A stretch of DNA of 64,000 nucleotides from a virus (taxonomy: Duplodnaviria > Caudoviricetes). Positions within the stretch are counted from its first letter, which is position 1. Each line of letters begins with the position of its first letter. This document shows, in pieces, positions 10,612 to 59,367 of the stretch. Position numbers and translations under genes: made by a program. The stretch lies in IMG/VR virus record IMGVR_UViG_3300030330_004210, positions 32,001 through 96,000 of that record; one strand, given 5' to 3'. The notes under the pieces were generated by a model that made no database searches, was not told where the DNA came from, and was given only the letters and a program-made list of their open reading frames with translations.

Positions 10612-13600
10612 CTAGTCCGTGAACGCTGCTCCGGTTCTAGTAATGTTGAAGTCGATAGCAATAAACTCGATTGCTCTAGCAGGCTTGAGGAAGATCTTAG
10701 CATACAGGATGTTGCGATCAACCAAATCCGGCGTTGTTGTCGTCTCGTCAAGAACAACTCTGAACTCTGTAAGACCCATTCTCGCCTTAACGCTTGCAAG
10801 AAGCGGCTCGGCTTGACTTGTGAAACGCTGCCATGTGGCAGGAACGTTCTGATCAAACAGAATGCCAGATGCAATTCTTGAAATCTCTTTCTTAATGAAG
10901 ATCATCAAGCGACGAACATTAACTCTGTCAAGAGCGCTCGGAGTAACCTGAAGAGTCTTCTGACCGAAGATCACAATACCCTCGCTTGGGAACGTAGCAA
11001 TCGGATTAATGTTAGCCTCGTAGAGCTTATCACGATCCGCTGCGGTTAGTCTCTCGGTTACCGCAGTCACCGGAATACCAGCGGCTCCATTCTTGCTCAG
11101 ACCGCCTCTGTTAAACCCTGCGGGAGCAAACCAGACTTCCGAAGCACGCTCGGAGCTAGCCATGGTGCCGATAGCAGCCACCGAAGGTGGAGCCCAAAGG
11201 AACTGACCAGTAACCGTGTCTCGAATCTGAACCCAAGGATAGTAAGCACAGCCATAGCTTGAATTGATCTGTCGATCTCTAAGAGCCGTCACAACCCCAT
11301 CAAGAGATGTTGCTGTAGCACGGCTCTTGAAATCGTTAGCATTTTCAGTGAACGGAAGGTAAATGCCTCGGAGATCGATAACACCAAGAGCATCACCACG
11401 ATCTTCGCAGACGTTAAGTACCTTCTGTGTAAGATTCTCATTCACAACACCGGGAACACTAAGCATGTTCATCTCAACAAACTCGGGATCCTTAACAGTG
11501 TTGATCGCCTTAGCAATCGTGTTGAAGGCATAGTTATTTACCTCTGTCTGCGTGGTGGTCTGCGTGAGAACGCCATCGCGGAAAGGATCCTTCTCGATAA
11601 TATTAAACCCATCGTACCCTCCGAACAGAGGAGAGGTGAATCTATTAAGACCGGAATCCAGAACTGCCTTATAGGAAGCAGATGTCACAGAATCGCCAAC
11701 GGTAACAGTATTGTCCCTACTGACACCAGAGCGCGAGCCCGACATCCAATAGCAGTCTTCGAGCTTGCCACCGGGAACAACAAGGTCGTCCAAGGTAAAG
11801 ATCCACGAATACTCTGCATTGGTAGGTGGACCTGTAAGCGAGCCGAAGCGGCTGGCTTCATCATAGGGAAGACCCCGAAGATAATCACGATAACCCATAT
11901 CAAACGTTGTAGAGGTTCTTCCGTTATCATAGTAGTTGGTCTGAAGACCCCAGTACGAGGACTTGGGATCAGAAGATCCATGATCAGAAGCCGAAAGTCT
12001 TGTAAGGGTCGATGGGAAGAACACGGAGCCCGTAAACTTACACCCGCCATCATCAGCACCTAAGATACTTGTCTGGATAGCAGTTGCGTTTGTAGCATCC
12101 ACGGTAGCCCCAAGCAGAAGCGGCTGACCAGCATAAGTGCCCGCACAAGAACCCGACCCCTCAAGGAACGAATAAGAGGCTGCGTCGCCGGTATCGTAGA
12201 ATACCTCCTCTGTAAGCAGTGTTTGACCAGCGTCTCCAAGAAGAGGCATAAAGTTATTTTTCGATTGGGCGGCGTTACCGGTTCCTGAAAGAATAGTCAA
12301 GCCCGGAGGACGCGGAGGTCCAAAGACGCCAAACGGCAGCAACTCAGCAGGAGCAGAGTTTAGATCTGGATTCATTTCAATACGGATAATCTCAGACCTG
12401 TTGGCAAACTCTCCGTACTCTCGTGTACGAGAATCATTGTAGTCCCACTCCACATAGCGGTCTCCAATCATTCTAGCGACATAGTTTGCAGACTGTGGGT
12501 CTAAGTTGCACTCGGAGAATCTTTCAATGATAACAGGTTTGGCATCAGAGTCGTTAGCAGCACGAACCACAACGGTGAACGAACCATAAGAACTAAAGTT
12601 ATTTGTAGCGGCTCTAATGTCCTGAATAGAAATCTTGAACTGCTCCTGAATTGCCTCGCCTCCGTCTCTACCGTGGAAACGGAAGAGCTTGGTCATGCTT
12701 CGAGCATCGTAAGAGGCATTGCCTGCGCCCCCAACCGAAGTAAGGTCTTGCGAGAAGAACCAGCCAGTTCTTGGGTTGATTGCACTCTGCTGACGGTCGT
12801 GAAACCCTGTGGTACCGGCAGTAGCTAGTGCTGTTGAGCCAGAGTTAACAGCCGCGATAAAGCCGTACACCTTACCGGGGGACGTACTTCCAAGCTTTTC
12901 AAACAAGTAAGACTCGTAAGTCTCGCCCAGCCAATAGGTGCCTTCGCCATCACTTAACGTTGAAGCATTGGTGATAGGACTTGTGTAGCCTTGGTCGGAG
13001 TTATTGACCAAAGTAGGGTTGGTGTTAAAGACTTTCCTAATGTAACGGTCACTGTTACGATTAAAGTTAAATTCGGTCTTCATGACACGCTGACCTGTCG
13101 AGTTCACCACCTCGGCAGTAAACGTTGCATTAGAGTCAGACTCAAGAACGATGCAGGTACCAGAGACATTAATCGGGTCAGCATCATATGTGGCACCGCG
13201 AGCACCACCAGAAAGAATAATTGTGGAGCCACTGTTGCAATACCAGATCGCAGCCAAAGAGCCAGATCCCATGTCGCCGGTCGCCTTGCTACCAGATGGG
13301 AGAACAAACAAGCCGTATGCACCGCCGTTAAGGTAGCGGCTTCCAATTCCTCCAACAGGGTTAGGAGAAACAGCATTATTGTCCGCTTGGTCTCCAAAGG
13401 AGTTCTTGGTAGTCCAGCCCGCTACGGCTTGGCTATTAGTGGTGTCAGCGCTCGGGTTTGCTTCACCCAAGGTACGAACAAAAGTAACGGGTCCGACTTG
13501 TGCATCAAGATACGCCTGTGTAGCATAGCCAGCATAGGTAGGACCTGCGATGTTTCCTTCTCGGAAATAATCGCCACCACCGCCGCCAGCCTCGGGGGGT

Positions 13601-13782
13601 CCGAACACATCCACAAACTCGCTAAAAGACTGAACCGTGTAGGGTCTATTAGCTGGTCCCTTCCGAGCACGCCCAATAAAAACAGGACCCACTTCGGGCG
13701 CAACCGCTGGTAACTGAGAGTTATCGATCTCTCTCAAGAAAATACCGGGCGAAACAAACTTAAATTTTCTTACATCTGACAT
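10612..13782 (-). CDS. gp18: Contractile tail sheath protein with large insertions
   Basis: N-terminal FVSPGIFLREID; C-terminal YYPWV, WFAPAGFNRG, LYEANINPIATFP, GQKTLQ, DRVNVRRL, KPARAIEFIAIDF. Confidence 0.95.
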   Translation of the reverse strand: MSDVRKFKFVSPGIFLREIDNSQLPAVAPEVGPVFIGRARKGPANRPYTVQSFSEFVDVFGPPEAGGGGGDYFREGNIAGPTYAGYATQAYLDAQVGPVTFVRTLGEANPSADTTNSQAVAGWTTKNSFGDQADNNAVSPNPVGGIGSRYLNGGAYGLFVLPSGSKATGDMGSGSLAAIWYCNSGSTIILSGGARGATYDADPINVSGTCIVLESDSNATFTAEVVNSTGQRVMKTEFNFNRNSDRYIRKVFNTNPTLVNNSDQGYTSPITNASTLSDGEGTYWLGETYESYLFEKLGSTSPGKVYGFIAAVNSGSTALATAGTTGFHDRQQSAINPRTGWFFSQDLTSVGGAGNASYDARSMTKLFRFHGRDGGEAIQEQFKISIQDIRAATNNFSSYGSFTVVVRAANDSDAKPVIIERFSECNLDPQSANYVARMIGDRYVEWDYNDSRTREYGEFANRSEIIRIEMNPDLNSAPAELLPFGVFGPPRPPGLTILSGTGNAAQSKNNFMPLLGDAGQTLLTEEVFYDTGDAASYSFLEGSGSCAGTYAGQPLLLGATVDATNATAIQTSILGADDGGCKFTGSVFFPSTLTRLSASDHGSSDPKSSYWGLQTNYYDNGRTSTTFDMGYRDYLRGLPYDEASRFGSLTGPPTNAEYSWIFTLDDLVVPGGKLEDCYWMSGSRSGVSRDNTVTVGDSVTSASYKAVLDSGLNRFTSPLFGGYDGFNIIEKDPFRDGVLTQTTTQTEVNNYAFNTIAKAINTVKDPEFVEMNMLSVPGVVNENLTQKVLNVCEDRGDALGVIDLRGIYLPFTENANDFKSRATATSLDGVVTALRDRQINSSYGCAYYPWVQIRDTVTGQFLWAPPSVAAIGTMASSERASEVWFAPAGFNRGGLSKNGAAGIPVTAVTERLTAADRDKLYEANINPIATFPSEGIVIFGQKTLQVTPSALDRVNVRRLMIFIKKEISRIASGILFDQNVPATWQRFTSQAEPLLASVKARMGLTEFRVVLDETTTTPDLVDRNILYAKIFLKPARAIEFIAIDFNITRTGAAFTD

Positions 13783-13858
13783 TACTTCTGGTCTCCTTTA
13801 GAACTGCAAAGATTCCAAGTTTCGTAAGTAAATAGTATATCATAAACCGAATCTCTCT

Positions 13859-15206: not shown

Positions 15207-15212
15207 CCTTTA

Positions 15213-16490
15213 TCACCCCTGATAGATAAACAACGGAACATACTTGTTTGTAGTGTTCACGCTCGTCATAAGTGCCGCCTCTTGCTCCGCAATCTTAGCG
15301 TAGGTCATTTCATCAAGCACGGTCTTTAGCTCCTCACGCAAAGTCTGTTGTTCATCTTTTGCTTGTGAAAGAAGATCCGAACCATTCAGATTTACAGATT
15401 CTCCGGGTATCGGAATAGTCGCAAACTTGCTCCTGACCTGACCGAGTGTTTCTTTTGTTAGTGCTAATGCAAATCTGCGGATCCACTGTTTGCCAATCGC
15501 GTTTATAGAATCATAAGGAATGTTTGTAAACGGCAGCGTATTCATGTTGTTGATGCCATCAACTCCCGTCTCTTGGATGTCTTGATCATCCCAAGCGTTT
15601 TCTTGGTTATCAATAGTAAAATTAACCCACAACTTATTAACGATATCTGCGTCTGGTTCTGGATATATGCGGATATTATTGTTATGTATTTCGTAAGAGT
15701 AGTGAGACAATCTAGTATATAGATGATCTTCATAAGCCATGGCTTGCATTTTATTTTGCCAAACGGGAACTATTTCAAAGGTAGAGTCATCGGTATATTG
15801 ACCATAACCATAAATAGAGCCGTTACCAACAACATTAAGACCGCCATAGTATCCAAAGAACCTCCACATTGACTGTGGAGTCTTATAAAATACTCTCTCT
15901 ATGGTAATCCTCTTGTTGCCAACCTGTAAAGCATATGGATAACCCGAGTCTGAAACGGCAGCGGAGCTTGAAATTAAACTTTGTAAATCATAGTCCTGAA
16001 CACCCGTTTCCAAGTCAATAGAAGCAGAGTAATAGGGCTTTGTTCCGCCAAAACCAGCATACTGGGCAGTTGCTGGACCAACACGCTTTGGGTACCTTAA
16101 ATCAAACTTAGGATATTTTAGCTCAATCTGACTACCGCTAAGTGTATCGCCACCCTTCATTACACCGTTATGATCAAAACTGGCTGTTGCTTGCCCAAGC
16201 ACATCGCCAAGAATGTTTTTAGCCTGATGGGTGTTAACGATATATGAATATTCCAAGCAAGCTTCTTCGTAATTAGCATACACTGAACCGGAGGTAACCT
16301 CAATGTCCAAGATGTCGCCACCAAGCTTTTGATATGTGTACGCCACTTGATCAGCAGCCCCAGACAAGAAATCAAAAGAGCCCGTATACATGCCCAGCGG
16401 ACATGCTGAAGATACGTCAGTTGTTGAGCCTGTAGCCGGGAGAACAACTGAACTTTGCTGACTCACTGGATTTAACTTGGGTATAGCCAT
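15213..16490 (-). CDS. Neck / head-tail adaptor protein (gp13-like)
   Basis: KLGGDILDIEV; C-terminal WIRRFALALTKETLGQVRSKF...PGESVNLNGSDL matches the gp13 pattern. Confidence 0.75.
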   Translation of the reverse strand: MAIPKLNPVSQQSSVVLPATGSTTDVSSACPLGMYTGSFDFLSGAADQVAYTYQKLGGDILDIEVTSGSVYANYEEACLEYSYIVNTHQAKNILGDVLGQATASFDHNGVMKGGDTLSGSQIELKYPKFDLRYPKRVGPATAQYAGFGGTKPYYSASIDLETGVQDYDLQSLISSSAAVSDSGYPYALQVGNKRITIERVFYKTPQSMWRFFGYYGGLNVVGNGSIYGYGQYTDDSTFEIVPVWQNKMQAMAYEDHLYTRLSHYSYEIHNNNIRIYPEPDADIVNKLWVNFTIDNQENAWDDQDIQETGVDGINNMNTLPFTNIPYDSINAIGKQWIRRFALALTKETLGQVRSKFATIPIPGESVNLNGSDLLSQAKDEQQTLREELKTVLDEMTYAKIAEQEAALMTSVNTTNKYVPLFIYQG

Positions 16491-16540
16491 ACATGGTTCC
16501 TCCTATCATAGTAAATAGTCAGCCATATAACAAAAGAGCG

Positions 16541-16804: not shown

Positions 16805-16851
16805 GTTTATCTCCTATTGGTCTAAGTTGGATATTATAAATAGTTCTTCTT

Positions 16852-16889
16852 AAAACAAAAAGCCCTCGTCATCCGAAGACAACGAGGGC
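16852..16889 (-). terminator. Rho-independent terminator after the major capsid gene
   Basis: GCCCTCGTTGTC-TTCG-GATGACGAGGGC followed by TTTTTGTTTT on the minus strand. Confidence 0.85.
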
Positions 16890-16913
16890 GTAATGTTTGC
16901 TAGGCGTTAGCTA

Positions 16914-18719
16914 TCAGCTACCGGACTCACCAAGGAGACCGCGACAGATAACCAGACCGTACATATCAGGGCGCACCATCTTCTTGGCGTACCGAGTCAT
17001 GACACCCTTGCGGGGCACGAAGTCCTCGACACCGAAGATAGTCGGCGTGACCTGAAGTGGGACATACGGAGCGTAGACATAGCCCGACTCAAGGAAGCTA
17101 CCACCCTTACGACCAATCAGAAGCACGTTCCGTGGGAAGTAAGGATCGACGTACACGTCGAACTTCTTAGAGAGCGAACCAACGTTCACTGCACCGATAG
17201 TACCTCTGTCCTGATCATGCGTGACCGAAGCGCGGAAGCCGCTAGTGAACTCAAGGATGTTAGCAACCTCGGGCGATGTCACCACGAAGTTAGCGCCACC
17301 CCGGAGAGTCTTGCGGTGAATCTGAGCGGACACATCATTGATGGTCTCAATCAGAGTCTCGTACCACTCGGAAACCGTACCGGTGAAGTCAGGAGCAGCC
17401 GCAGATGCACCAATCTCAGCACCAGTTGTGCGGTTCACGAACAGACCCGGCGAACGCGACCAGTAGAATGTACCGGCAGTAGCACCCTTGATAAGATCCT
17501 CAAGGATCTCACGGTCAATCTCAAGAGCAATCTGCTCGGAGAGGATGCTCGTAAGCTCGACCTCGGCATCAAGGTTGTGGTAGGCGTTAAGGTCTTGCCC
17601 TAACTCCGGAGTCCACTTCGCCTTGAGCTTCTTGGTGATCGCCGTCACACTGACACTATCCACCTTGATATCAATCTCGGGGATCGTCTCGGTGTCCTCA
17701 AGACCCCAAGTAGTGGTTGCACGAACAGCACCAAGTGCCTCGTCCGAACCAGCAGTCGGCGTGCCATTGAAGTTATCAACGATTGGGAAATCGTAGGTCT
17801 TAGCCAACGAGGCGGTAAGAAGACCCAAGAGGCTCTTCGAAAGGTTTGCGCCCGATGCGCCACCATTGTCAAGAACCGATGAACCAGTCGCCTCGTACAC
17901 CATGGTAATCTTGTAGCCAGACTGACCCGGAGCATTGTCGCCAGTTGAACCAGACGAAACCTGTGTAAGACGACGCACAAGACGACCCGGCGACTGAGCG
18001 CCCATGTCGGTTGCAATCGCAACAAGATCCTGCGTGTTGAACTGAGTCAAGTCCGTAGACCCGGTGGTCTCGACAACGACAACAGCAGAGCCGTCAAGAT
18101 CTGGATCGTAACGGGTCAGCTTGTTAAGCGTATCGATATCTGCCTGCGAGAGCGGGAAGCTACCAGCACCAGCAGCCGCACCGATAGTGCCAGAAGCAAC
18201 GACCACAAAAGTATTTGTGATAGCCGCAGAGCCAGTGGCAGACGTAAAGCCGTTGTTAAGGTTGTAGGGTCCAACATCAGCGTTATCACCCGTAAGCGAG
18301 ACGCCACCTGTTAGCTCCTGACCAACGACGCCCTGACCATAGATCGAGTCGCCATCAGTTTGACCGAGACGAGTATCCCCGAACGTGAAGTCAAGGAAAA
18401 AGATCAGACCAGACGGCAAGCTCATGGGCTGCACGCTGACCAGATCGTTAGCAATAAGACCGCCAAAGACGCGACGAACGATTGGGAAAGCCACCGCCGC
18501 GAAGCCCTCAACGTCGCCAGCCGCCATAGACGAACCAGCGGCTTCCTTGAGAAGCTGCTTAGCCTGATTTTCCAGCAAACGAGCCATCGTATGCTTGGTA
18601 CGGTCATTGCCGAGACCTTCCAGAAGTCCTGTCCGCTCCCACTTGGAGAGAAGAGCAGCACCTTCCGAACGGAGGTCTCTATTAACAATACCTTCTGTTA
18701 ATTTCTCTAAAATAGACAT
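16914..18719 (-). CDS. gp23: Major capsid protein (T4 gp23-like)
   Basis: VSVQPMSLPSGLIFFLDF, KLKAKWTPELGQDL, EIDREI, YAPYVPL, PRKGVMTRY; strong SD AGGAGG. Confidence 0.97.
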   Translation of the reverse strand: MSILEKLTEGIVNRDLRSEGAALLSKWERTGLLEGLGNDRTKHTMARLLENQAKQLLKEAAGSSMAAGDVEGFAAVAFPIVRRVFGGLIANDLVSVQPMSLPSGLIFFLDFTFGDTRLGQTDGDSIYGQGVVGQELTGGVSLTGDNADVGPYNLNNGFTSATGSAAITNTFVVVASGTIGAAAGAGSFPLSQADIDTLNKLTRYDPDLDGSAVVVVETTGSTDLTQFNTQDLVAIATDMGAQSPGRLVRRLTQVSSGSTGDNAPGQSGYKITMVYEATGSSVLDNGGASGANLSKSLLGLLTASLAKTYDFPIVDNFNGTPTAGSDEALGAVRATTTWGLEDTETIPEIDIKVDSVSVTAITKKLKAKWTPELGQDLNAYHNLDAEVELTSILSEQIALEIDREILEDLIKGATAGTFYWSRSPGLFVNRTTGAEIGASAAAPDFTGTVSEWYETLIETINDVSAQIHRKTLRGGANFVVTSPEVANILEFTSGFRASVTHDQDRGTIGAVNVGSLSKKFDVYVDPYFPRNVLLIGRKGGSFLESGYVYAPYVPLQVTPTIFGVEDFVPRKGVMTRYAKKMVRPDMYGLVICRGLLGESGS

Positions 18720-18735
18720 TTTAAGTCCTCCTTTT

Positions 18736-48538: not shown

Positions 48539-51500
48539 CTAGTCGGAGTCACCACTTTCAAAAGATGCTGCTTGCTCTGCTGTCATCTCCGGTAGATAAC
48601 CCTCATTCGGAACTTCTGGCGGGTCTTCGAATGCTATCTCGCTTTCAAGATTTGCGAACTCAACAAGTGAGAAGAAGTCATACGGCCAGTTATATGAATA
48701 TTTAACATCCTCAAGCGAAGCTGGCTCGCCACCCATAGAGAATTCAAAACCAACACTAGGATCGGTGCCTACACTAACAAGCCTCTTGCTATAGTAATCG
48801 ATGTTTGCTTTTTGCTTCACCTTGAATACCATCCATTGTAGCTCTTCCTGTACTGCGCGACCAGTTTCTGCACCTACATTGCCCATAAGCTCGTTTACAA
48901 GCAGAGGGTGGCTTATCGTGCTTTCAGAAAACTCTATCTTTGTGCCAGCTTTTGGAGGTAAGTTTTGCCAAATGTAAGACAAGTCCTCTTTATCAAAAGT
49001 GTGACTAAACTCAAAGAAATACATTGCAACGGGGTCTACAGAATCTGGAAAATCCAAGAAGTTAAACGGAGGAGGAATAACATATTTCTTCATCATTTCT
49101 ATCTGTGTAGCGATAGAATCTCCATAATCTAATATAGGATTACCAAAAACAGGGTCTGGAAGAAGAGCCCTATCAATTGTGGCTCGTTCTATTTGCAAGA
49201 AGCTTCTCTCTCCACCCTCTACAACAAATGGTATAGCAACAATTGCTTCACTTACTGTGTGTCCTTCTTTAACGTTACCAAGCCTTGTCTTCGTGCTTGA
49301 GAACTTTAACTTATCAATAAGACTCTCATACCCGCCTTGTGCAGCAACTTCTGTTTTATAATAATTGTCAGCAACATCGCCAGTAGAGATTCCAACCCTA
49401 TTTTTTGACCACTGCAAAGGTATGTCAGTTAACTCCATAAAAATACCTTCGTCTGGGGAAGCTGGCGGCAGACCGAACTGGTGCCACATACCTCTGGGTA
49501 CCGTTTCTTTGCCGTTTGTTGGAATTGTTAGATTTCCATCTGCCTCCGTGATTGGTCTAAGGGCACCAGATGTGGGCGTAAAGTTGAACATTGGGGTTTC
49601 AAATTTTGGCTCGATAACCCAAACAGGCTCATTTGACGCAGGGTCATCACTAATTAAAACCGGTCTCTTTGATACAGGATCGTATTCTATTGAATTGACC
49701 TGTGCTTGACCGAGAATATTTAAGGATGCTGTAAGTTGCATAGCATACTGCTTCACAGCCCCTCTATCATAGGGCTTTGTCAAATCATTATTGGCTGAGG
49801 GGGCTGCATAAGTCCACTGGGTGTTATCTATTCTCCAATGGCTAATTTTTGCTTTTTCTTGAATATCGGCAAGTGTATGCGTCTCAAGCTCAGCTTTGAA
49901 TATAATATCACACCAACCCTCGCCATCATAATAAGGTGGCGTGTAAGCAGGATTATACCCCTCCAGAGGATCTGCTTTTTTGGATCCAATATTAACTGGA
50001 GATGCTGTATCAAATCTTCTACCAGCCAATGGCGGTCCAAACGCTGATGGGCGGCTATACATGGTGAATGTTTCTCTTAGTCCATCGCTTTGCTCCGCAG
50101 GCAAAACCTGTGGGAATGGGTAATTTCTTCTACTATTAGAGGTTGACGAATCGTTATATGTTCTTGGCTGATTAAAGCTCTTACGCAGTTTGATTCTCAT
50201 GGCATATACTTTACCGGGCTCAAAGCTTCCAAATTCACCTTCTTTAGCAGAGATAAAAGAAGACATCTGACCATTTGGCATAAACATGTTAATAGATTCT
50301 GCAAAGAAGTTGCTAGCCATCATGGAATAAAGTGGGTCTCCCTGACCACTCCAAGAGGCAGTAAGGTTCATTGACGCACTGGGGTGGGGCTCCATGTCTA
50401 CAAATGTTTCGTTAGCTATATATTCAAGAGGACTAACAATAGCCTCAAAGGGGACTCGCTTATCAAACCCTACGGCATTCTCTGATGCCCCTCTGCCTTT
50501 GTTATCAACCGAAGTGGGGCGTCCGACAAAGAAAAGCTCTCCAGCACTAGCTTGGCTTCCACTATTGTTGACCACCTCATAAGAGCCGGTGTACATTCCA
50601 AAATCAACAGCTATACCAGATTTAATTGTATTGTACATGATTCCGGGTGCAAACAAGGGCTGCAAAATTGGTCTAATAGCGGCTTTTGGATAGCTTGATG
50701 CCTCAGAGGCGAAGCCATCGATCCCTCCATCGACATCTATGTATTGACCAAATGATTTAGAAAACTGTGTGGCTATATCTATAGTTCTCTGTGCAGGGTA
50801 GAATCCATCGTAAGGGAGAAACTTTTTAATTGCTTTGCACTTAAGGGTAATTTTTGCTGGCTTTTTGAAATCTGTGTGGTCGTCATAAATTGCCTCAAAA
50901 TGCTTCATGAAATCAGAGTTAGAGAACGTGCTGTAGAATCCTTCTTCTGCGCTTGAAGATGGGAGGCTCCCAGAAGCACCATATATCTCAAACAGTTGGT
51001 CGTTCTCAACTAACGGATCCTGTGTGATTCCATACAACTCCATGTGCTTGCTTATTCTAAACTCGGGTATTATAGAATAATTTTGGTTCTGCAAAATAGC
51101 TTCGCTCATATTCTTTTCATAATCGGGCTCAATTGGGTATCTTATATCTGATTCAAAAGACTTGACAAAAGCCTTAATTTCATTTCCGTTTTCGTCTTTA
51201 ACAGTCTTCTGTTCAGTTTTGATGCGACCAGCGAGATCGGCAGCTTGCCACAGTGCTGTTCCACCGAAAATTGCTATATCGCCCTGTCTTCTAGAGGCAT
51301 CAACCGTGTTTGCAACGCCTCCTGTCTGTGGATTGTCAAGCAAGACAGGAACAGTTGAAGCTGTGGAGAAAAGCATATGCTTTCTTGCATACAATACCGA
51401 TGCAGTGATAAAGGCTTTTGATCCATTGTGAACTTGTAGGTAGTCGTTTTGTAATTCGCCTGCTGCGCTGTCATCGGCGGTTGAGGCTACCTTGATTGTG

Positions 51501-54500
51501 CCTGCTTCAAAAACTTGAGATGCATCCATAGCCCACGCACTTTGAGTTAATTGGTTAAATAATCCGGGGTATGGGGCTCCCATACTACTGCTCTTTTCGG
51601 AGCCCAGCGTGGTTCTTGCAGATCGCGTCGTATCCCAGAACTTAACTTTAAAGTTTTCTCTTTCCCTAACCTTCTCCAAGCTTGCGTTATATGCGGCAGG
51701 ATAGACGCACTGCTTGTACCGGAGCGAGAAGAAGTTTTTAACTGGCGTCGTGTCTGATCCAAGCGCACCATCCAAATAAGTTTTCTTGAGAGTGTCGTAA
51801 GAGGTGTGAATCTTTCGGTCGTCAATGGTCCCAATCGTCAAATCATCTAGACCTCTATTGGAGAACCTTGCTAACTGATTAGCATAGGTGGCATCAAGCA
51901 CCAGCGTTCGCTCTGCGGAGCCATCTTCAACACCCAAGACAAAACGCAATGGCTTTGAGGAGTAATCAACAGAGGGCTCTTCAAAACTTTGTAGGTCTGC
52001 AAATCTATCTTTCACTCGACCGACACCAAGAATTAGCCTTGCACTACCCGGAGTTGGGTTGATTGTTATGGTGTTATTCTTTCGGTAGTATCGAACAAGT
52101 TTGTTTTCGGCTGTTCTTGTCTGCTTCCAAGAGGGGTAACCATAATAGCCGTTACGGTAGATGTTTAGGTCATGGAAGACAGATGCGGTGACAGCGCGGG
52201 TATTCAATACGTTTTGTATAAAAGATTCAGTATTAGCCGCATTGTTAGGCATTGTATCTATGTCTCCATAATTGACATAGAACCCAACCGGGGTTGTCGT
52301 TTTGTATCCCAAGGTTGCTTCGGATGCTGAAAGAGGCTCAACAATGTTTGCGTTTAAGTGTGTTACTTGATGAAAAGACGTAGCAAAGCCGCCTCCAAAT
52401 AGATAATCTGCACCGTATCTTCGGATGCCGGAACCATGCAGGTAGCTAACAACATCAGAAGATGAAACAAAGTCAATTGATGAATGGATGCCAGAAGAGT
52501 TAGAATATATGCCCTCTGGGTGTCCATGACCATACGCTAAGCTTTGAACAAGAGATGCCGTTATCCAAGCATAGCTTGTTTCCATTCTTGGAATTTCGTG
52601 ATTAACAAACCCATTATCAAAATTGCTTGCCGTATAAATATCTGCCGTATCCCACACCCTTGTTGGACCTGTTGAGCCAGTTAGCTCTGGTCGCAAAAGT
52701 GTATTTCTATTAACCTTATGGTAGCTTCCCGTTAGCGACGGTGCCATAAGGGGGTCTACGGCTGTCATGGTGGAGCCACTGTAAAGACCAAACTGCCTTG
52801 CGTGGTTTACAAGGAGCGTTCTGTTCAGTGGCGTTCTGACCGTTGTGTTACGGAAGGGCAGAGCATTGTATGGCGAGAACTCGGCAGATTCAAAGTCAAG
52901 ACCGAAGCCGCCATTTGCATCGCCTGCGGTGTCAGGACCACCGGGTGCAGAGAATCTTTGCACAAACACATGCTCATGCTTGCCTCGCTGGGGTCTAGTG
53001 GTGCCAACGACTTGGCGTACAAAAGGCATAGAAGTTGGGCTAACCGTCGCCTTGCTAAACCCACCCTGCTCTGTAAGAGCAGCGTTGTTGATGCTTCGCC
53101 CAGATGTTTGAACAATATCATAGAAGTTCTCGAAGTTTCCGATGTTGGACCTTAGTGTACCAGAGATGAACTCTGTTGGGGTGGGTCCGATTGGTGTTCC
53201 TGTGCCAGCAGGCAGTGTGGTCTTGTAAGCGCCAATATCACTTGCTGTCATCTGAATGTTTCGGATGTTTACAGGTCTCTTGGCTGCTTCGTCGCGTGTA
53301 TAGACAGCGGCGGCAGGCAGGCTCCCATCAGAGGACTTTGGTGCCGTGAGGCTTAAGGAGTTATCAGTATTCACCAAGAGCTTAAACCCTTCGGCACGTT
53401 TTGCGCCACTGCTAGATCCTGTTGTGGCTGGGTCATGGACAAGATCTTGGTGTCTCCACTGATTTCCGCCAACATACTTCTCGGTAAATGGTCCCTGCAT
53501 TGGAACTTCCATATCGTTGCCGATAATATCGTGATGCATGTTGGAAATACCACCCGAAACAACGTCGGTCAATTTCCTGCCACTGTTTACAGAAGTGTTT
53601 TGATACCCTGTTTGCACCGAAGAACTATAGACGCTAAAGGGGGAATAAATGTCTCCCACTCCTATATCCTCATAGGGACCGCCTAATACGATAGAGCTAT
53701 TATCAGTTGCAAATGCATAACTGACTTTTTTCTTGTTTATCTCTGGCGGGATAATAGCGTCATCACAATCTTTACCATAATCTGGAGAGCCGGGTCCAAT
53801 GACCATAAACTCGTTTTTTGGATGGACAGCCAATGTCCTTATCTGAGGAGTTATAAATCCATAACGCTTGCGTTGTGAATAATCTGGTCCGCCGTGATAG
53901 AGCGGGCTCTCGTCAGGGATAAGGTTATAAATCTCATCAAACCTTCTGAGGGCATATGTTGAGCCTTGGTATGTGTTGGTTGGCAGGGTTCGTGTTGAGT
54001 TTGCAAGTGTTGGACCGGGAGAGCCTGTTCTGTAGGTCTCTATGATCTCTCGCTGTGATTCCCTATCTGTGTTGACGCTTGCTACTGAAGAAGAGATTAA
54101 TGAAGTTGTTCTCTCGGCGCGCTCCTTCCACCACATACAATTTTCTGCTTCGTCATCAAGACCAAGTGGGGCGTGACCGTGCTCCCAATCATACTTAAGC
54201 TCTGTGATTCCTCGGACAGCAGCCTCTGGGTCTGTGACCTTCATTTCAAGTGTCGGGAACTTACTCCAGTATTTGTTTCTCTCAAGAACATGGCTCTCGA
54301 CCATCGTCCTAACACCATCAGAGAAGTCAGCCGTGGCAGGCACAAGCTGCTGAAGCATCACGGAAAGCGAGTTGTCAATCCACTTGTAGTAATCGACATA
54401 CTTGTCGAGATCAGGAGTGTTGCCTATCTTTTCAAAGAAAAGCTCTCTAAGCTTTCCAAGCTCTTTGTAATCTTGACGGTATCGATTTTTCGGGTCACCA

Positions 54501-57500
54501 ATAAGCTCGTTGAACGCAACAACAGAGCCAAAGAAGTTCATAATTTCTTGGGTGATTGTTGCATACATGCTCTTCTCAAAAGAGAAGTAGTAATTTACAG
54601 GTCGGCTATCTCTTGTGAACTGCTGCTCATCTTGTAGTGTTAGAATGTTTACCGTATCCTGTGCGCTAATACTCTCTGGGGCGTTCTGGCGCTCAGCACT
54701 AACATACATTCTATCCACAACACCAGTTGTGGAAGTTCTCATGCTATAGGCACGACCCGGATATTGGTAGGCTACTGTCTTGGAGAATTGTGGATTATTT
54801 TCATTATCGTGATATCTTCCGAAATTATCTATAGATCCCGATGAGCTATCGAGAACCAAAAACTCTCCACTCGAATCAGAGCCAGTAACGTTTTCAAAAT
54901 TCCAGTTGAAGGCGAGGGTTGCAAACTTAGGCACGATTGTGCCAGTCAGAGCAGACTGCAACAAGTACGCGCTTTCATATGGTCTTAACGACCCAAAGTT
55001 TTTTGGATCCCTTGCGTGAGCCCGAATAGCCGCATCTTCAACATAACTTTCCCAGTGCCGAAGCGAGGAAGCCTTAACGTCAGACCTTTCCACAATCGAG
55101 CCAGTCCAATTTGTGCGCTGGGCTCCCATGTAGTATCTTCTATCTGAAGTTAGATATTGTGTATTAGATATTGCAGAAGAAGTCAGATAAAGCTCGTGCT
55201 TTAAGACACCGCCCTCATAGTTTACGCCATACAACTCAAGAATTGTATATGTGTCATCGATATCAAAATCTGTAGCACTACCAGCATCAGACCCTGATAC
55301 TACATCCGACATTGGTCTCTTAGCATTCTTTGTTCTTACTGCAAAATTCCACTTCTCGTTATCGTAAAGATTTGGATACACACTCGATGTAAGGTAAAAA
55401 TCAGGCGTAGAATTCCTATGTGACTTAAATACAAAATATGCATCTGGAGAGTCTGCTTCTAATCTTACGGCATACAAGCCCCAAGCTGCATCATTTGCTA
55501 CTGCCGCCTGAACATAACAGTCATCATCGGCTTGAGTCTTAAGGACGTGTGTTCCTGCGATAGAAGCGGATAAGAAATCAGACTCATAATAAACTACAGA
55601 GGCTCTATCAGTTGCCTTCTTGGGAAACACAACTTCTACTTCAGCAGTAGTTGATAAATACTCATTAACCGTGCCAGACACAAAAGTAACATTACTTGCA
55701 TTTACGTTTGAACTTTGTGACTGTTGTGTAACAACGCCCGCGAAACTATCAGGATAGTTAAAGTCTACATATTTTTTGCGAACAACTGCTGGGTCGTAGT
55801 TATCTCTGATTTTGTATTCGGTATTATTTGCATACAGGTTAAGGGCGACAACATTGTCATCAACGCCGTAGCATCGAATTAAGTTTCTAAACGACTTTAA
55901 GCTTCCCTTGGATTTGTAGATATAAACTAGGTTATTGTAAATATTCTTATAAATTCTATCCTTAATACCACCTATTTCAAGCTCGAAGTTTCGAACTTCA
56001 TCCCTGCTCATAATTTGAGATAGGATCTCTGCGTCTGCAAAAATCTCTGGTGCCTGCATGCCGTAATTGGCAACAAGCCTATTTGCTACTGGGAGTGGTT
56101 TGTTTGAACCAGAAACATAGTCATTATCTTTCAGATTTGGAAGCTCCTCCATCTGCAAATGGAGCGAATCCATGTAGCTCGTCATTATCTGCACCAACTG
56201 CTTTAACGTGCCGGGATCCTCATCCTGCATCCAGCCGGGTACCCTATTGTATAGGGTTGAGTTGCTTGTATAATCATAGACACTTCCAGACTCCACCAAT
56301 GTTGTCTTTGCATCAGTGACAAGAGTGTTATCAATTCTAATAATCGGATCTTCAAATTCAGATACTGCTGCCGATGCTGATACTATGGCAGACCCGGTGT
56401 TTCTAGCTGTTGAGCCGGGATAACCTGTCCAGACGCCATTTGATATACGACCGCTATAATCAAGAACAATTGAGTCCGTGGAGCTTGTTCCTGTAATGCC
56501 CTCATTAAACTTGTAATACACACCCAGTTCTGTGTTGGCTATGTCTGTATTTGCACCGCCTCGGACCTGTGTAAAGTAGTTAAGTCCGATCTCCTCTCCG
56601 TTTCTGGCTGTCTTCCAATATCTAAATTCATCCAAAGAAGCTTCTAGACCGCCATATCCCTTATATGTCGTGCTAGGATATACATGTGCTTGGAAAGCGT
56701 TACCAGATGGAGTCGTCTGGAGAGCGCCCAAGTGGGCTACAAGCGAGCCTGTAACTTCGTTAAAGTTTCCTATATCTCCAGAACTAACCTCTTCTATGAA
56801 TGATCCACTACGATATAGTCTTGCCTTAAGGGTGTTGTCGGCTGAACTGGACTGGAAAGTGAAAGCAAAGTGCTCCCAGTTGCCCTCTATGGATGAGGTG
56901 GTAAGCGAAGCCCCTAGCCTAGCATCCCAAACTGTTGAGCCAGACGCGAGATGTATTCCGAACGGCTGGGCTCCTGAATCTCCATGTCCACTAGCGCTCA
57001 AAAATAACAGCAGACGACCGTATTGTGAGCGATCACTAGTTGTTCCTCCGCTTGTGCTACCAGTGATCTCTCCGTTCCAAAGATCAAAGATAGCAGTCTT
57101 GTTTATGTTATCTGTGTTACTTGTCTGCCACGAATCTTTTTTCAGCCAAAATTCAACCGTGACACCATCTTCAAGATTGTAACGAAGGTTAGAGAGTCTA
57201 CTGCCTTTCCTATCTCCCGCCACCTCTCTAGTTGTGTCATATATGTTTGTATCATAGTAGTTTGCACCTGTAAACTGCGTAGCCATTGAGCCAGATGCCA
57301 TCCCGCCAGACGCAGTGTGCGGACCACCCTTGATGGTAATGTATTCTTTTGCGGCGGTTGGAACCGCCTTCCACCCGCTGATACCAGCAGTAGGCGTATA
57401 TCCTCCTGCATGAATCGTAGCAAATCCTGTAGTTCTTGGATATTCATTTTCTAGGATGTACAGGTCAAGGTATGAAGAGCTATTGAGATATTCGGTTATC

Positions 57501-57754
57501 TCTGCTTCAGAGCCATCATATGGATAGTCGGCTAAAACTCTGTCAAATGCATCTTCATAATATTTTTCGGCTGATCCGAAGCGAACAAAGTTGTTTGGAT
57601 CGCTATAATCAAGCTGCGGAATAAAGCGGTGTCGCTCTTCTTTCTGGGCGGCGATATTTCTAGAAGACTCTACCTTCTTTGAAGCCTCGCGAACATCAGA
57701 AGTTTTGAGAATCTTATATGGCTTTCCTTTGTCGAATAAGTCTCTGCTTCCCAT
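48539..57754 (-). CDS. Giant baseplate wedge / receptor-binding protein (gp7/gpI-like core with LamG domains)
   Basis: 3071 aa; LamG-type TVEFW, WEHFAFT, LDEFRYW, YYKFNEG; wedge motif IYKSKGSLKSFRNL; located downstream of gp6. Confidence 0.65.
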   Translation of the reverse strand: MGSRDLFDKGKPYKILKTSDVREASKKVESSRNIAAQKEERHRFIPQLDYSDPNNFVRFGSAEKYYEDAFDRVLADYPYDGSEAEITEYLNSSSYLDLYILENEYPRTTGFATIHAGGYTPTAGISGWKAVPTAAKEYITIKGGPHTASGGMASGSMATQFTGANYYDTNIYDTTREVAGDRKGSRLSNLRYNLEDGVTVEFWLKKDSWQTSNTDNINKTAIFDLWNGEITGSTSGGTTSDRSQYGRLLLFLSASGHGDSGAQPFGIHLASGSTVWDARLGASLTTSSIEGNWEHFAFTFQSSSADNTLKARLYRSGSFIEEVSSGDIGNFNEVTGSLVAHLGALQTTPSGNAFQAHVYPSTTYKGYGGLEASLDEFRYWKTARNGEEIGLNYFTQVRGGANTDIANTELGVYYKFNEGITGTSSTDSIVLDYSGRISNGVWTGYPGSTARNTGSAIVSASAAVSEFEDPIIRIDNTLVTDAKTTLVESGSVYDYTSNSTLYNRVPGWMQDEDPGTLKQLVQIMTSYMDSLHLQMEELPNLKDNDYVSGSNKPLPVANRLVANYGMQAPEIFADAEILSQIMSRDEVRNFELEIGGIKDRIYKNIYNNLVYIYKSKGSLKSFRNLIRCYGVDDNVVALNLYANNTEYKIRDNYDPAVVRKKYVDFNYPDSFAGVVTQQSQSSNVNASNVTFVSGTVNEYLSTTAEVEVVFPKKATDRASVVYYESDFLSASIAGTHVLKTQADDDCYVQAAVANDAAWGLYAVRLEADSPDAYFVFKSHRNSTPDFYLTSSVYPNLYDNEKWNFAVRTKNAKRPMSDVVSGSDAGSATDFDIDDTYTILELYGVNYEGGVLKHELYLTSSAISNTQYLTSDRRYYMGAQRTNWTGSIVERSDVKASSLRHWESYVEDAAIRAHARDPKNFGSLRPYESAYLLQSALTGTIVPKFATLAFNWNFENVTGSDSSGEFLVLDSSSGSIDNFGRYHDNENNPQFSKTVAYQYPGRAYSMRTSTTGVVDRMYVSAERQNAPESISAQDTVNILTLQDEQQFTRDSRPVNYYFSFEKSMYATITQEIMNFFGSVVAFNELIGDPKNRYRQDYKELGKLRELFFEKIGNTPDLDKYVDYYKWIDNSLSVMLQQLVPATADFSDGVRTMVESHVLERNKYWSKFPTLEMKVTDPEAAVRGITELKYDWEHGHAPLGLDDEAENCMWWKERAERTTSLISSSVASVNTDRESQREIIETYRTGSPGPTLANSTRTLPTNTYQGSTYALRRFDEIYNLIPDESPLYHGGPDYSQRKRYGFITPQIRTLAVHPKNEFMVIGPGSPDYGKDCDDAIIPPEINKKKVSYAFATDNSSIVLGGPYEDIGVGDIYSPFSVYSSSVQTGYQNTSVNSGRKLTDVVSGGISNMHHDIIGNDMEVPMQGPFTEKYVGGNQWRHQDLVHDPATTGSSSGAKRAEGFKLLVNTDNSLSLTAPKSSDGSLPAAAVYTRDEAAKRPVNIRNIQMTASDIGAYKTTLPAGTGTPIGPTPTEFISGTLRSNIGNFENFYDIVQTSGRSINNAALTEQGGFSKATVSPTSMPFVRQVVGTTRPQRGKHEHVFVQRFSAPGGPDTAGDANGGFGLDFESAEFSPYNALPFRNTTVRTPLNRTLLVNHARQFGLYSGSTMTAVDPLMAPSLTGSYHKVNRNTLLRPELTGSTGPTRVWDTADIYTASNFDNGFVNHEIPRMETSYAWITASLVQSLAYGHGHPEGIYSNSSGIHSSIDFVSSSDVVSYLHGSGIRRYGADYLFGGGFATSFHQVTHLNANIVEPLSASEATLGYKTTTPVGFYVNYGDIDTMPNNAANTESFIQNVLNTRAVTASVFHDLNIYRNGYYGYPSWKQTRTAENKLVRYYRKNNTITINPTPGSARLILGVGRVKDRFADLQSFEEPSVDYSSKPLRFVLGVEDGSAERTLVLDATYANQLARFSNRGLDDLTIGTIDDRKIHTSYDTLKKTYLDGALGSDTTPVKNFFSLRYKQCVYPAAYNASLEKVRERENFKVKFWDTTRSARTTLGSEKSSSMGAPYPGLFNQLTQSAWAMDASQVFEAGTIKVASTADDSAAGELQNDYLQVHNGSKAFITASVLYARKHMLFSTASTVPVLLDNPQTGGVANTVDASRRQGDIAIFGGTALWQAADLAGRIKTEQKTVKDENGNEIKAFVKSFESDIRYPIEPDYEKNMSEAILQNQNYSIIPEFRISKHMELYGITQDPLVENDQLFEIYGASGSLPSSSAEEGFYSTFSNSDFMKHFEAIYDDHTDFKKPAKITLKCKAIKKFLPYDGFYPAQRTIDIATQFSKSFGQYIDVDGGIDGFASEASSYPKAAIRPILQPLFAPGIMYNTIKSGIAVDFGMYTGSYEVVNNSGSQASAGELFFVGRPTSVDNKGRGASENAVGFDKRVPFEAIVSPLEYIANETFVDMEPHPSASMNLTASWSGQGDPLYSMMASNFFAESINMFMPNGQMSSFISAKEGEFGSFEPGKVYAMRIKLRKSFNQPRTYNDSSTSNSRRNYPFPQVLPAEQSDGLRETFTMYSRPSAFGPPLAGRRFDTASPVNIGSKKADPLEGYNPAYTPPYYDGEGWCDIIFKAELETHTLADIQEKAKISHWRIDNTQWTYAAPSANNDLTKPYDRGAVKQYAMQLTASLNILGQAQVNSIEYDPVSKRPVLISDDPASNEPVWVIEPKFETPMFNFTPTSGALRPITEADGNLTIPTNGKETVPRGMWHQFGLPPASPDEGIFMELTDIPLQWSKNRVGISTGDVADNYYKTEVAAQGGYESLIDKLKFSSTKTRLGNVKEGHTVSEAIVAIPFVVEGGERSFLQIERATIDRALLPDPVFGNPILDYGDSIATQIEMMKKYVIPPPFNFLDFPDSVDPVAMYFFEFSHTFDKEDLSYIWQNLPPKAGTKIEFSESTISHPLLVNELMGNVGAETGRAVQEELQWMVFKVKQKANIDYYSKRLVSVGTDPSVGFEFSMGGEPASLEDVKYSYNWPYDFFSLVEFANLESEIAFEDPPEVPNEGYLPEMTAEQAASFESGDSD

Positions 57755-57762
57755 CTTCTTAC

Positions 57763-59367
57763 CTATGTTTGCTGATCTTGGACGCGGAATTTAAACACAT
57801 CTGACTGCTCTACCCAAGATCCGATAGCGCCATTGTAAAATGTAAATTTCATTCCATAAGAGTAGTCAGACTCTAACAAGCTCATGTCAAGATCAAAATA
57901 ATTTCCACTCACATCAAACGAAAGTTGGGTTGCTGCATCGCTTCCCGTGTTATAAGGGATGACCTCCAAATCGTCAACCACTCTGTACACCATGTAAGAT
58001 GCGCTTTCTATAATCTCGTTCTCTACATCTGCCGTTGCTCTAGTATAAATAGTCGGGTTCCACTCTTTTTGGCGTGCATATAATCTAAAACGCGCGGTCT
58101 CTTTTCTGGTATATATCGGTCTTAAGTTGGTAACTGCTAAGGCGTACTGCGTGCTTGGATTTATGTCTGACGAATCTAAGGAATACGGCGTGATTGAGCC
58201 GGTGTGGAACCTCTTTCTATAATGGTTACCATCATCTATGGTCCCACTAGACCAAACATCATACAGTGTCTCAATTGGTGTTGCAGCCGAGGTGATTGCA
58301 ACAGAGCAAGTGTAAATTCCTGTCGCGAAGTGACCGCCCGTTGCGAATGTTTCTGCCGTTACAGAAACACCGCCGCCGATGCTCAACTCTAAGCGAGAAC
58401 CAGAGGGCGCTGTATCATCTACGTTTCCAGAAAAGAAGCTCACCATAATAGAGCCTGTGCTTCCAACCTCGGGGATGTCCCTCAATTGACCCCTTACATA
58501 ATTATAAAGGAAAAGGGTATTGAGGTTATCTTCGCCCGGAGCTAACGAACTACTGTAATAGAAGTTGCCGCGATCATCTTTGTCTGCCGAGTCCCATCGT
58601 GCTTCGATAACGGGTCTTTTAAAGAAAAATTCTGAGCTTCTGCTAAAAAACTTTTTAGTATAAAATGAATCGAGAGCACCTGAAGGATTGGGCACTGCAA
58701 AAGTGGCGGTGTCTTCGTTGAAAGCCTCTTGGGTTCCAGTTAATTTTAGGATTAAACCATAATTTGTCAAAGATCCTAAGACGTTTCCATTGTCATTCGC
58801 CCACATCTCAACAAGCGGTGTTATGTCTGCTTCAAGATCTTCTGTGCCTTCTTCAAAGTATATTTTATACATATTTTTGCCAAGGACGCCACCATCATTA
58901 TCCTCTACAAAATCACCGCCTTTATGCTGCCAAGAGCCTGTGAGCCCCCCTCCTAACCAAGTCGAGCCAGCCTTACCATGAGTTAAGTCTGTGTACTGCT
59001 CCATGTCTAAGCCTGTGCCTTCTTCCCAGCTTCTGGTCAGGGCATGAGCCATCAAATACATCTGTTTTGGAACCGTTTGAGAGTGTGGAGCATTGAACAT
59101 CTTGAGATAAAAGCTTACGCTTCCGCTTAATGGTATCACACTTGCACTACGATCAGTCTGAATATCGCTGACGGGGAAATTTATAATTGCTCGACTTAAT
59201 TCGCTAGACAAGCCAGCGGTTGAACCAGATGCCTGCCCTCTAATAGAAAATACTTCTAAAACATCGGCTGCACCCATATTGGCACCTGTTCCTCTGGTGC
59301 TCAAGTCGGCTTTAAATGCATTGGTTATGGTATTGTCAGCATCAGCATTATATCTCTTGATAGCCAT
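57763..59367 (-). CDS. Baseplate-associated structural protein, DNRLRE-like N-terminal domain
   Basis: SRAIINF, LTRSWEEGTG, NYGLILK, FFSR...RPVIEARWD. Confidence 0.55.
   Translation of the reverse strand: MAIKRYNADADNTITNAFKADLSTRGTGANMGAADVLEVFSIRGQASGSTAGLSSELSRAIINFPVSDIQTDRSASVIPLSGSVSFYLKMFNAPHSQTVPKQMYLMAHALTRSWEEGTGLDMEQYTDLTHGKAGSTWLGGGLTGSWQHKGGDFVEDNDGGVLGKNMYKIYFEEGTEDLEADITPLVEMWANDNGNVLGSLTNYGLILKLTGTQEAFNEDTATFAVPNPSGALDSFYTKKFFSRSSEFFFKRPVIEARWDSADKDDRGNFYYSSSLAPGEDNLNTLFLYNYVRGQLRDIPEVGSTGSIMVSFFSGNVDDTAPSGSRLELSIGGGVSVTAETFATGGHFATGIYTCSVAITSAATPIETLYDVWSSGTIDDGNHYRKRFHTGSITPYSLDSSDINPSTQYALAVTNLRPIYTRKETARFRLYARQKEWNPTIYTRATADVENEIIESASYMVYRVVDDLEVIPYNTGSDAATQLSFDVSGNYFDLDMSLLESDYSYGMKFTFYNGAIGSWVEQSDVFKFRVQDQQT

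Follow-up and report, generated by a model that had tools for sequence, protein, structure and literature searches.

A short protein motif, [ST]-[GA]-[ST], is enriched in eight virion proteins encoded by a 64-kb stretch of the genome of an uncultured marine phage, a distant T4-like myovirus, and we propose from sequence comparisons, with a probability of roughly 45%, that it may serve as an acceptor site at which phage-encoded enzymes O-glycosylate selected virion proteins in the cytoplasm. The stretch (the window) comprises bases 32001 to 96000 of a 111,256-base linear viral contig, IMGVR_UViG_3300030330_004210 (G000), with a CheckV completeness of 61%; every gene in it lies on the minus strand, and together they form the late module of the phage. 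The eight proteins together contain 100 copies of the motif against 32.7 expected (Poisson P = 3e-21 with per-protein shuffling), an excess over chance stated as three- to six-fold, and all remaining proteins of the contig contain 63 against 60.5 expected. Counts are given below as observed/expected, the expectation being the mean of shuffles of the same protein, and were made for every open reading frame (ORF).

Could the excess simply reflect proteins rich in Ser, Thr, and Gly? The carriers are richer in Ser, Thr, Gly, and Ala than the enzymes, several of them are only nominally significant when taken singly in G000, and some control phages show diffuse ratios of up to ∼1.6. However, the excess stayed intact when residues were shuffled within blocks of 10, 20, or 40 residues, which means that local composition (Ser/Thr/Gly-rich patches) is no explanation, and the permuted patterns [ST][ST][GA] and [GA][ST][ST] were merely 1.1- to 1.3-fold over expectation. 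Global shuffles, block shuffles, and permuted patterns together ruled out a composition artifact, and the excess was replicated in hundreds of orthologues. The first-pass annotation, which had singled out the motif from the letters alone, had named loss of the enrichment after composition correction as evidence against its proposal; the enrichment persisted under every composition control used. We therefore regard the enrichment as real and chance as excluded, the probability left to a chance or compositional origin being negligible. The 100 sites are encoded by 87 distinct 9-mers, which rules out a word at the DNA level and places selection at the protein level.

The per-protein comparison made eight proteins stand out, and the earlier hand count of 10 motifs in a 412-amino-acid protein proved exact (10/2.0), as did the reported absence of the motif from the 1033-amino-acid Mre11-Rad50 fusion and from the terminase (527 amino acids), both of which have none. 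Within G000 alone, only the 3071-, 412-, and 534-amino-acid proteins pass a Bonferroni correction; the neck protein passes for [ST][GA]S, and the sheath, capsid, 367-, and 148-amino-acid proteins reach just nominal significance. Orthologues, drawn for most proteins from 80 related viral contigs, replicated the excess for the sheath (mean 12.3/5.3, n = 27), the neck (5.1/1.7, n = 64), the capsid (6.7/2.8, n = 80), and the 148-amino-acid protein (3.9/1.2, n = 8), and the excess of the 367-amino-acid protein recurs in a few close relatives only (6 to 8 sites against 1.8 to 3.1 expected in L001-L006 and in a syntenic contig, G001). Orthologues of the tube, tail-completion, hub, portal-side, and terminase proteins were at or below expectation. 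A search for broader relatives by capsid alignment returned close clade members only and so provided replication without contrast.

We then asked what the motif consists of. Among all 8000 tripeptides, none is more over-represented than SGS (28/4.7) and TGS (25/4.3). In the pattern xG[ST], the residue before Gly is enriched for Ser and Thr only; Asn and Asp are not enriched around Gly, which argues against a generic turn signal. Ser occupies the third position at 80% of the sites. In those alignment columns of the 412- and 534-amino-acid families in which at least 30% of homologues carry the motif, Ser and Thr are interchangeable at position 1, position 2 is Gly, Ala, or Ser, position 3 is almost always Ser, position 4 is a conserved aromatic or aliphatic residue, and the residue preceding the motif is often hydrophobic. 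The refined motif is hydrophobic-[ST]-[GAS]-S-hydrophobic. The form [ST][GAS]S-hydrophobic stands at 53/8.7 in the eight proteins, 13/16.9 in the other 28.8 thousand amino acids of the genome, and 2/5.9 in 18 T4 virion proteins, ratios that are descriptive because the refined motif was derived from the same families. Known sequons were not enriched in the eight proteins (D-[ST]-[AILVMT], 26/25.4; N-x-[ST], 62/62.9), and neither was SGxG.

The placement of the sites is lineage specific. In the tail sheath (1056 amino acids; 10612..13782, minus strand, as are all window genes; phrog_23, with Pfam Phage_sheath_1C on residues 767 to 1051), the 12 motifs (12/5.9) all lie in residues 163 to 823, and only residues 9 to 73 and 863 to 1056 can be aligned with T4 gp18. 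In the gp13-like neck or head-tail adaptor protein (425 amino acids; 15213..16490; phrog_211 on 232 to 394), the six motifs (6/1.4) all fall in residues 20 to 155, and the block alignable with T4 gp13 is 331 to 388. The gp23-like major capsid protein (601 amino acids; 16914..18719), identified by tblastn to annotated T4-like capsid genes, has nine (9/3.5): seven in residues 160 to 302, one at 446, and a C-terminal SGS. Residues 21 to 114 and 348 to 577 of this protein align with T4 gp23, and the main motif block falls between them. The protein ends in GESGS, with one motif copy at its extreme C terminus. Capsid, sheath, and neck sites thus avoid the T4-alignable core and are confined to lineage-specific parts, which we take, from published T4 structures, to face outward in the T4 counterparts.

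The 148-amino-acid protein encoded between portal and prohead protease (20869..21315; 3/0.8) has no family match. The 412-amino-acid virion protein of the baseplate region (37401..38639) is the densest case. Next to it is its 367-amino-acid paralogue (38651..39754; 7/2.6), which matches its C-terminal half (blastp, 27% identity over 208 residues, E = 5e-11). A giant of 3071 amino acids, also in the baseplate region (48539..57754), holds 41/13.4 (P = 1e-9), and a 534-amino-acid protein adjoining the gp6-like wedge gene (57763..59367) holds 12/3.1. For the 412-, 534-, and 3071-amino-acid proteins there was no Pfam, PHROG, or PDB sequence match; the 412-amino-acid protein also lacked a PDB fold match, with nothing below E = 0.08 in a Foldseek search of its model. 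The suggestion that the motif is scattered among unrelated folds stands at the sequence level. In an all-against-all blastp of the virion proteins, the 412/367 pair was the sole paralogous pair, and hhalign gave the 412 family against the 534 family a probability of 1%; a shared repeat or domain was ruled out on these grounds.

Site retention was followed in the two large families. In 120 homologues of the 412-amino-acid protein the mean is 8.4 motifs against 2.1 expected, with sites 200, 230, 247, and 365 kept in >80%, and in 120 homologues of the 534-amino-acid protein it is 12.3 against 3.6, with sites 81, 389, 455, and 474 kept in 86 to 99%. The excess in both families lies wholly in columns common to many sequences, and rare, presumably young occurrences are as frequent as permuted controls. 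These data suggest that new sites appear at the neutral rate, the excess coming from their later retention; ongoing site gain was ruled out, young columns being no commoner than for the permuted patterns.

Retention of this kind is also what a structural role would give. The motif could be a surface beta-strand or strand-end pattern alternating in and out, with the two hydroxyls towards solvent and the small and two hydrophobic residues towards the core, favored by peripheral beta-rich domains for packing or hydration while the enzymes described below serve something else. The flanks are hydrophobic and strongly conserved, many sites adjoin predicted strands, and motif residues are no more conserved than other Ser, Thr, and Gly residues (0.61 versus 0.57 to 0.67). 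Spacings of 6 to 10, 15 to 19, and 20 to 24 residues are over-represented, which fits a beta-rich architecture, and the 3071-amino-acid protein has runs at 16- to 17-residue spacing (for example, residues 1659 to 1732), as in beta-meanders or solenoids. In AlphaFold2 models of the 412-amino-acid protein (m7b61b828af8d; mean predicted local distance difference test score [pLDDT], 68.6) and the 534-amino-acid protein (mf7c6be6003e8; pLDDT, 72.9), SGT200 of the former forms a two-residue hairpin turn. However, the 22 modeled sites fall at strand starts, at strand ends, in the one tight hairpin, within strands, in coil, and at helix ends, with the same distribution as the background, and thus lack a single structural context. 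A comparison with the Thr/Ser ladders of beta-solenoids gave the same divided picture: an excess of 15- to 24-residue spacings and one 16- to 17-residue run, but mixed contexts for the 22 sites in models of moderate confidence. Asn and Asp, the usual turn formers, are unenriched around Gly, and the carrier families are unrelated. Moreover, the physics invoked is universal, yet the beta-rich virion proteins of T4 show no enrichment (27/31.5 for [ST][GA][ST]) and even fewer of the extended motif than expected, and the excess is limited to a subset of proteins in lineages with one common enzyme cassette. We consider a purely structural role somewhat less likely than O-glycosylation but a serious rival to it.

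The first-pass annotation had seen no modifying enzyme in the window; a nucleoside diphosphate (NDP)-sugar pathway lies just outside it, at the end of the contig (G000 104454 to 111224, that is, 72454 to 79224 in window numbering; L014:10855-17625). Its genes encode a 4,6-dehydratase, a cupin, a nucleotidyltransferase (NTP-transferase), a HAD hydrolase, a sugar C-methyltransferase (Methyltransf_14), a DegT aminotransferase, and a GNAT protein cut by the contig end, and they are transcriptionally upstream of the gene for a 2329-amino-acid protein and of the baseplate genes. The set seems to resemble acetamido-dideoxyhexose pathways. The DegT match is limited to a 202-amino-acid ORF, which is followed by a 290-amino-acid ORF without a match, and the aminotransferase may be split or fused. 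No glycosyltransferase was among the matches listed in Pfam and PHROG scans of the proteins of the 61%-complete contig.

The glycosyltransferases appear in relatives whose sequence extends further. In G001 (IMGVR_UViG_3300025133_000045; 99.8 kb), which is syntenic with G000 gene by gene at 38 to 93% identity, the pathway is followed by genes of 260 and 332 amino acids and then by a GT2 glycosyltransferase (530 amino acids) and two GT4 glycosyltransferases (GT4a and GT4b in what follows; 414 and 421 amino acids), with a nuclease-like gene preceding (the cassette of nuclease-like, GT4, GT4, and GT2 genes is at 72404 to 77273; L017:12405-17274). The earlier suggestion to search the rest of the genome for glycosyltransferases therefore found none on the contig itself and a GT4-GT4-GT2 trio beyond the pathway at the syntenic position in G001. 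A further contig, G002, carries this trio as well, together with a UDP-GlcNAc 2-epimerase, and two other clade contigs covering the region carry GT4a. The order nuclease-GT4-GT4-GT2 is common to Flavobacterium phage immuto (MW353176, 47964 to 52985) and Microcystis phage Mel-JY01 (PP395634, 81375 to 86972), and the sugar genes downstream differ by lineage. GT4a and GT4b lie side by side in G001, G002, immuto, and Mel-JY01; the EX7E catalytic motif is kept by both in each of these four lineages, and membrane segments are lacking from all of the transferases. In phmmer searches against all PDB chains, GT4a matched B736L, BshA, PimB-type enzymes, and TreT, and GT4b matched nothing; the best solved-structure sequence match of GT4a, chlorovirus B736L (PDB 3oy2; E = 1e-6), covers the generic GT4 C-terminal domain only. 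The sequence ACTAWTTA, a putative promoter described below, also occurs in G001 upstream of the tightly packed array leading into the cassette, a weak hint of late expression. In Rhodothermus phage RM378, a UDP-galactopyranose mutase-like gene (NC_004735.1, 112985 to 114136) lies ∼2 kb from the homologue of the 412-amino-acid protein, inside the virion gene region.

Do the motif and the transferases occur together? We searched 50,697 phage records by tblastn with GT4a, GT4b, and GT2. The adjacent GT4 pair was found only in immuto phages and Mel-JY01, and GT4a alone in RM378 and the uncultured phage LR756508; the remaining matches were a partial one to GT4a in MT835496 and a GT4b homologue of ∼25% identity in Streptomyces phages, and GT2 returned nothing. 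GT4 homologues above ∼28% identity are thus confined to a few lineages that also show the motif. Genome-wide totals were 304/168 in immuto, 307/140 in Mel-JY01, and 103/61 in RM378; in structural proteins, SGT (27/7.4) and SGS (21/5.5) stand out in immuto and TGS (8/1.2) in Mel-JY01. Proteins enriched at a Poisson P of <5e-3 numbered 29 of 582 in GT4a-bearing genomes versus 0 of 182 in controls (T4, S-SSM7, Rhizobium phage RHph_I1_18, LR756511, and Samisti12; Fisher P = 5e-4). The first-pass annotation had proposed examining this co-occurrence, which holds here across few, related lineages. LR756511, whose capsid protein is as close as that of Mel-JY01, lacks both enzyme and motif, and Streptomyces phage Samisti12, with a distant GT4b homologue, shows no enrichment. 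A general property of T4-like virions was ruled out by T4 itself and largely by S-SSM7, RHph_I1_18, and LR756511. S-SSM7 (NC_015287.1, 107899 to 149215) has a diffuse excess (41/26; 1.55-fold) spread over enzymes (UvsW, 4/0.7) and virion proteins (gp14, 10/4.1), which shows that not every phage has a baseline of exactly 1. Ratios for the extended motif in the controls were noisy (0.4 to 2.7). An order-specific index computed per whole genome was discarded: it was too diluted, was confounded by the overlapping word GST, and did not separate the groups.

Motif specificity, mixed structural contexts, absence from T4, lineage-specific placement, and the enzymes described above support the core of the earlier claim, convergent selection for a recognition site in unrelated virion proteins, which agreed with every test made; they can be assembled into the following model. 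Late in infection, a soluble GT4-GT4 pair and a GT2, encoded just past the contig end, would act in the cytoplasm. An unusual NDP-sugar donor would come from the adjoining pathway, comprising an RmlA-like nucleotidyltransferase, a 4,6-dehydratase, a ketoisomerase-like cupin, a DegT aminotransferase, a GNAT acetyltransferase, a sugar C-methyltransferase, and a HAD phosphatase or mutase. The transferases would link this sugar to the Ser hydroxyl of the motif at sites on lineage-specific peripheral parts of the capsid, neck, and sheath and on a subset of the baseplate proteins, and the glycans would end up on the particle surface. The enrichment, its specificity and conservation, its spread among proteins, the sugar pathway, and the lineage-restricted transferases are observed; a protein substrate for the transferases, the identity of the modified residue, and a glycan function in shielding or stability are our inferences. 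The hosts of the group belong to three phyla, which favors a target common to the phages over a host-specific envelope glycan, and neither a flippase, a polymerase, nor a priming transferase is present in the annotated cassettes of the complete immuto and Mel-JY01 genomes. No ThyA/hydroxymethylase family member occurs in the complete genomes of Mel-JY01 and RM378 or in G000 and G001, immuto being the only one to have it; its absence from Mel-JY01 and RM378 argues against glycosylation of hydroxymethyl-pyrimidine DNA as the conserved role.

Several points weigh against O-glycosylation of the motif. The transferases could serve another substrate, and the nuclease gene that precedes the GT4 pair in all lineages also suits a function directed at DNA. 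They are absent from this contig, their presence in the G000 phage being deduced from synteny with G001. New motif occurrences appear at the permuted-control rate, with all of the excess in retained sites, as a structural role would give, and nonvirion proteins do not avoid the motif. The motif is missing from the largest and fastest-evolving virion proteins and from the tube and is therefore no general coat of the surface. The co-occurrence amounts to about nine lineages that are phylogenetically nonindependent, the controls are samples of 31 to 50 kb with some ratios of 1.2 to 1.6 (S-SSM7) or noisy small counts, and both AlphaFold2 models are just moderately confident.

The data call for some reader, restricted to the lineage, that recognizes a short, position-specific word in proteins unrelated to one another, and they are silent on which reader this is. 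The word might instead mark another Ser/Thr modification (phosphorylation, acylation, or ester cross-linking) or binding of an assembly factor such as the phage GroEL, Hsp20, or ClpP; the contig does encode Cpn60, HSP20, and a Clp protease. However, no kinase or other protein-modifying family was among the Pfam matches listed for the contig proteins (25 of 43 matching families in one batch), chaperones and Clp recognize hydrophobic or terminal signals rather than small polar tripeptides, and among lineage-restricted enzymes, only the glycosyltransferases were found to follow the motif. A reader of a different kind is, in our judgment, improbable. The first 20 kb of G000 (1 to 20000; locus L012) encodes a GroEL-type chaperonin (Cpn60), Hsp20, ClpP, thioredoxin, an IMP dehydrogenase/GMP reductase, a UvdE UV-endonuclease, a PolIII-alpha-type polymerase, and a Mom-family protein.

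If the motif marks glycosylation, the modification would be selective. The tail tube (203 amino acids; 9941..10552; 81% identity to its G001 orthologue and positioned beside the sheath gene) has 0/1.6 despite 23% Ser plus Thr, and its orthologues (n = 28) average 0.5 versus 0.7 expected. Two virion-module proteins of 944 and 1257 amino acids without family matches (40764..47371) contain 1/1.9 and 4/4.5, and the gp6-like baseplate wedge subunit (594 amino acids; 59367..61151; phrog_219, phrog_10646, and phrog_6) contains 1/1.9. The portal (2/1.4), a 372-amino-acid protein (1/0.9), and the 2329-amino-acid protein (5/4.2) are likewise without enrichment, and a 309-amino-acid protein (4/2.3) is not significant. 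Identity between G000 and G001 is 53% for the 944-amino-acid protein, 38% for the 1257-amino-acid protein, and 47% for the 2329-amino-acid protein; the first is among the least conserved proteins, and the other two are the least conserved of all. Receptor-binding proteins often show such low conservation. Calling the motif virion-wide was thus too broad: eight virion proteins are enriched, but seven others (tube, portal, gp6-like wedge, and 372-, 944-, 1257-, and 2329-amino-acid proteins) stand at expectation. Restricting it to outer virion proteins was also an overstatement, given that several large virion proteins lack it and that the 148-amino-acid gene occupies the position of a T4 prohead-core gene, which makes the label doubtful for that protein.

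Motif-rich proteins also occur beyond the region that G000 covers. Past the part common to both contigs, G001 encodes three proteins (89826 to 93021) of 486 (11/5.6), 96 (4/0.4), and 478 amino acids (11/4.5), and the uncovered part of the G000 phage genome therefore probably holds more motif-rich virion proteins. An 805-amino-acid protein of Mel-JY01 (PP395634.1, 635 to 3052) has 114 sites against 34 expected, far above any other, and is probably a low-complexity fiber or coat protein.

The T4-like character of the module was established with Pfam, PHROG, tblastn, and pairwise alignments to T4 proteins, which placed homologues of capsid, sheath, neck, wedge, portal, and prohead protease in one late array. 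In the window, this array comprises the tube, sheath (Phage_sheath_1C; phrog_23), gp13-like neck (phrog_211), gp23-like capsid, prohead protease (Peptidase_S77), portal (Portal_T4), terminase, Mre11-Rad50 fusion, and gp25- and gp6-like wedge proteins, together with several very large proteins that have no family match. A small ORF between the prohead protease and the scaffold (19904 to 20152) corresponds in position to a gene annotated in Mel-JY01 as ribosomal protein S21. ACTAWTTA, on the coding strand, lies 12 to 56 bases upstream of many late genes and is a candidate late promoter; window genes preceded by it start at 5985, 8768, 10552, 13782, 16490, 19812, 21315, 40706, 48491, and 61151, and across the contig it occurs 38 times on the coding strand versus 11 times on the other.

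The cultured relatives closest by capsid protein are immuto, Mel-JY01, and RM378 (37 to 49% identity), and the 412- and 534-amino-acid proteins each have >4,800 metagenomic homologues, many from marine surveys. At somewhat under even odds, we suggest a broader reading for this widespread aquatic T4-like clade, whose hosts belong to Bacteroidota, Cyanobacteria, and Rhodothermota and which has thousands of relatives in marine metagenomes. A conserved soluble GT4-GT4-GT2 module would read hydrophobic-[ST]-[GAS]-S-hydrophobic and cover the head, neck, sheath, and baseplate with unusual deoxy-amino sugars made by the phage; if so, it would be the first case of a bacterial virus that O-glycosylates its proteins generally through a sequon. 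An abundant group of marine phages would then be coated in glycans, with possible effects on adsorption, stability, grazing and digestion, and detection by host defenses, and the sequon together with the three enzymes would offer a compact means of glycosylating proteins in the cytoplasm. Because immuto, Mel-JY01, and RM378 are in culture, the claim can be tested directly. If the motif is structural instead, it would still be a rule for building peripheral virion domains that is strikingly specific to the lineage. To our knowledge, glycosylated phage particles have been documented in very few cases, and we know of no phage that uses a short sequon across many structural proteins. In the literature, no description was found of this motif, nor of glycosylation in immuto or Mel-JY01.

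How would such a system compare with those already known? The nearest precedent is in mycobacteriophages, whose virions are O-glycosylated by phage-encoded transferases, with glycans at the C termini of capsid and tail-tube subunits (PMC12619734). The likeness is that structural proteins would be modified in the cytoplasm, ahead of release, by transferases that the phage itself encodes. The differences are that here the candidate sites are dozens of short internal motifs spread over capsid, neck, sheath, and baseplate; that the tube has no motif and the capsid sites are mainly internal (160 to 302), with the single C-terminal SGS; and that the phages, marine T4-like myoviruses, infect hosts of other phyla. 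The source study on mycobacteriophage virion glycosylation is reportedly that of Freeman et al. (2023, Cell Host Microbe 31:1216).

Cellular and eukaryotic-virus systems offer further parallels. GtfA/GtfB of the serine-rich-repeat adhesins of Gram-positive bacteria is a cytoplasmic, tandem O-GlcNAc transferase of GT-B fold that modifies Ser in S-A-S or S-x-S, GtfB being noncatalytic. The phage GT4a/GT4b is likewise an adjacent pair of GT-B fold, but both members keep EX7E, no sequence homology to GtfA/GtfB was detected by phmmer against all PDB chains, and the adhesin substrates are long low-complexity repeats rather than dispersed single motifs. Chloroviruses encode their own sugar and transferase set, and the glycans of their Vp54 are mainly N-linked at atypical sites; they share with these phages a virus-encoded soluble GT4 (B736L of NY-2A), but the B736L match is restricted to the generic C-terminal domain and the host is eukaryotic. 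The heptosyltransferases AAH and TibC carry out cytoplasmic O-glycosylation of regularly spaced Ser/Thr on the beta-helices of AIDA-I and TibA by strand-loop-strand recognition. Many Ser/Thr at regular spacing on beta-rich repeats may be a common feature, but the enzymes are of another family, the sugar is heptose, and the substrates form one repeat family, in contrast to the unrelated proteins here. Finally, the general O-glycosylation of Bacteroidota, a periplasmic system with the sequon D-[ST]-[AILVMT], also uses a three-residue sequon across many proteins, and one of the phage relatives infects Flavobacterium; that sequon, however, is at expectation in the eight proteins, and virions assemble in the cytoplasm.

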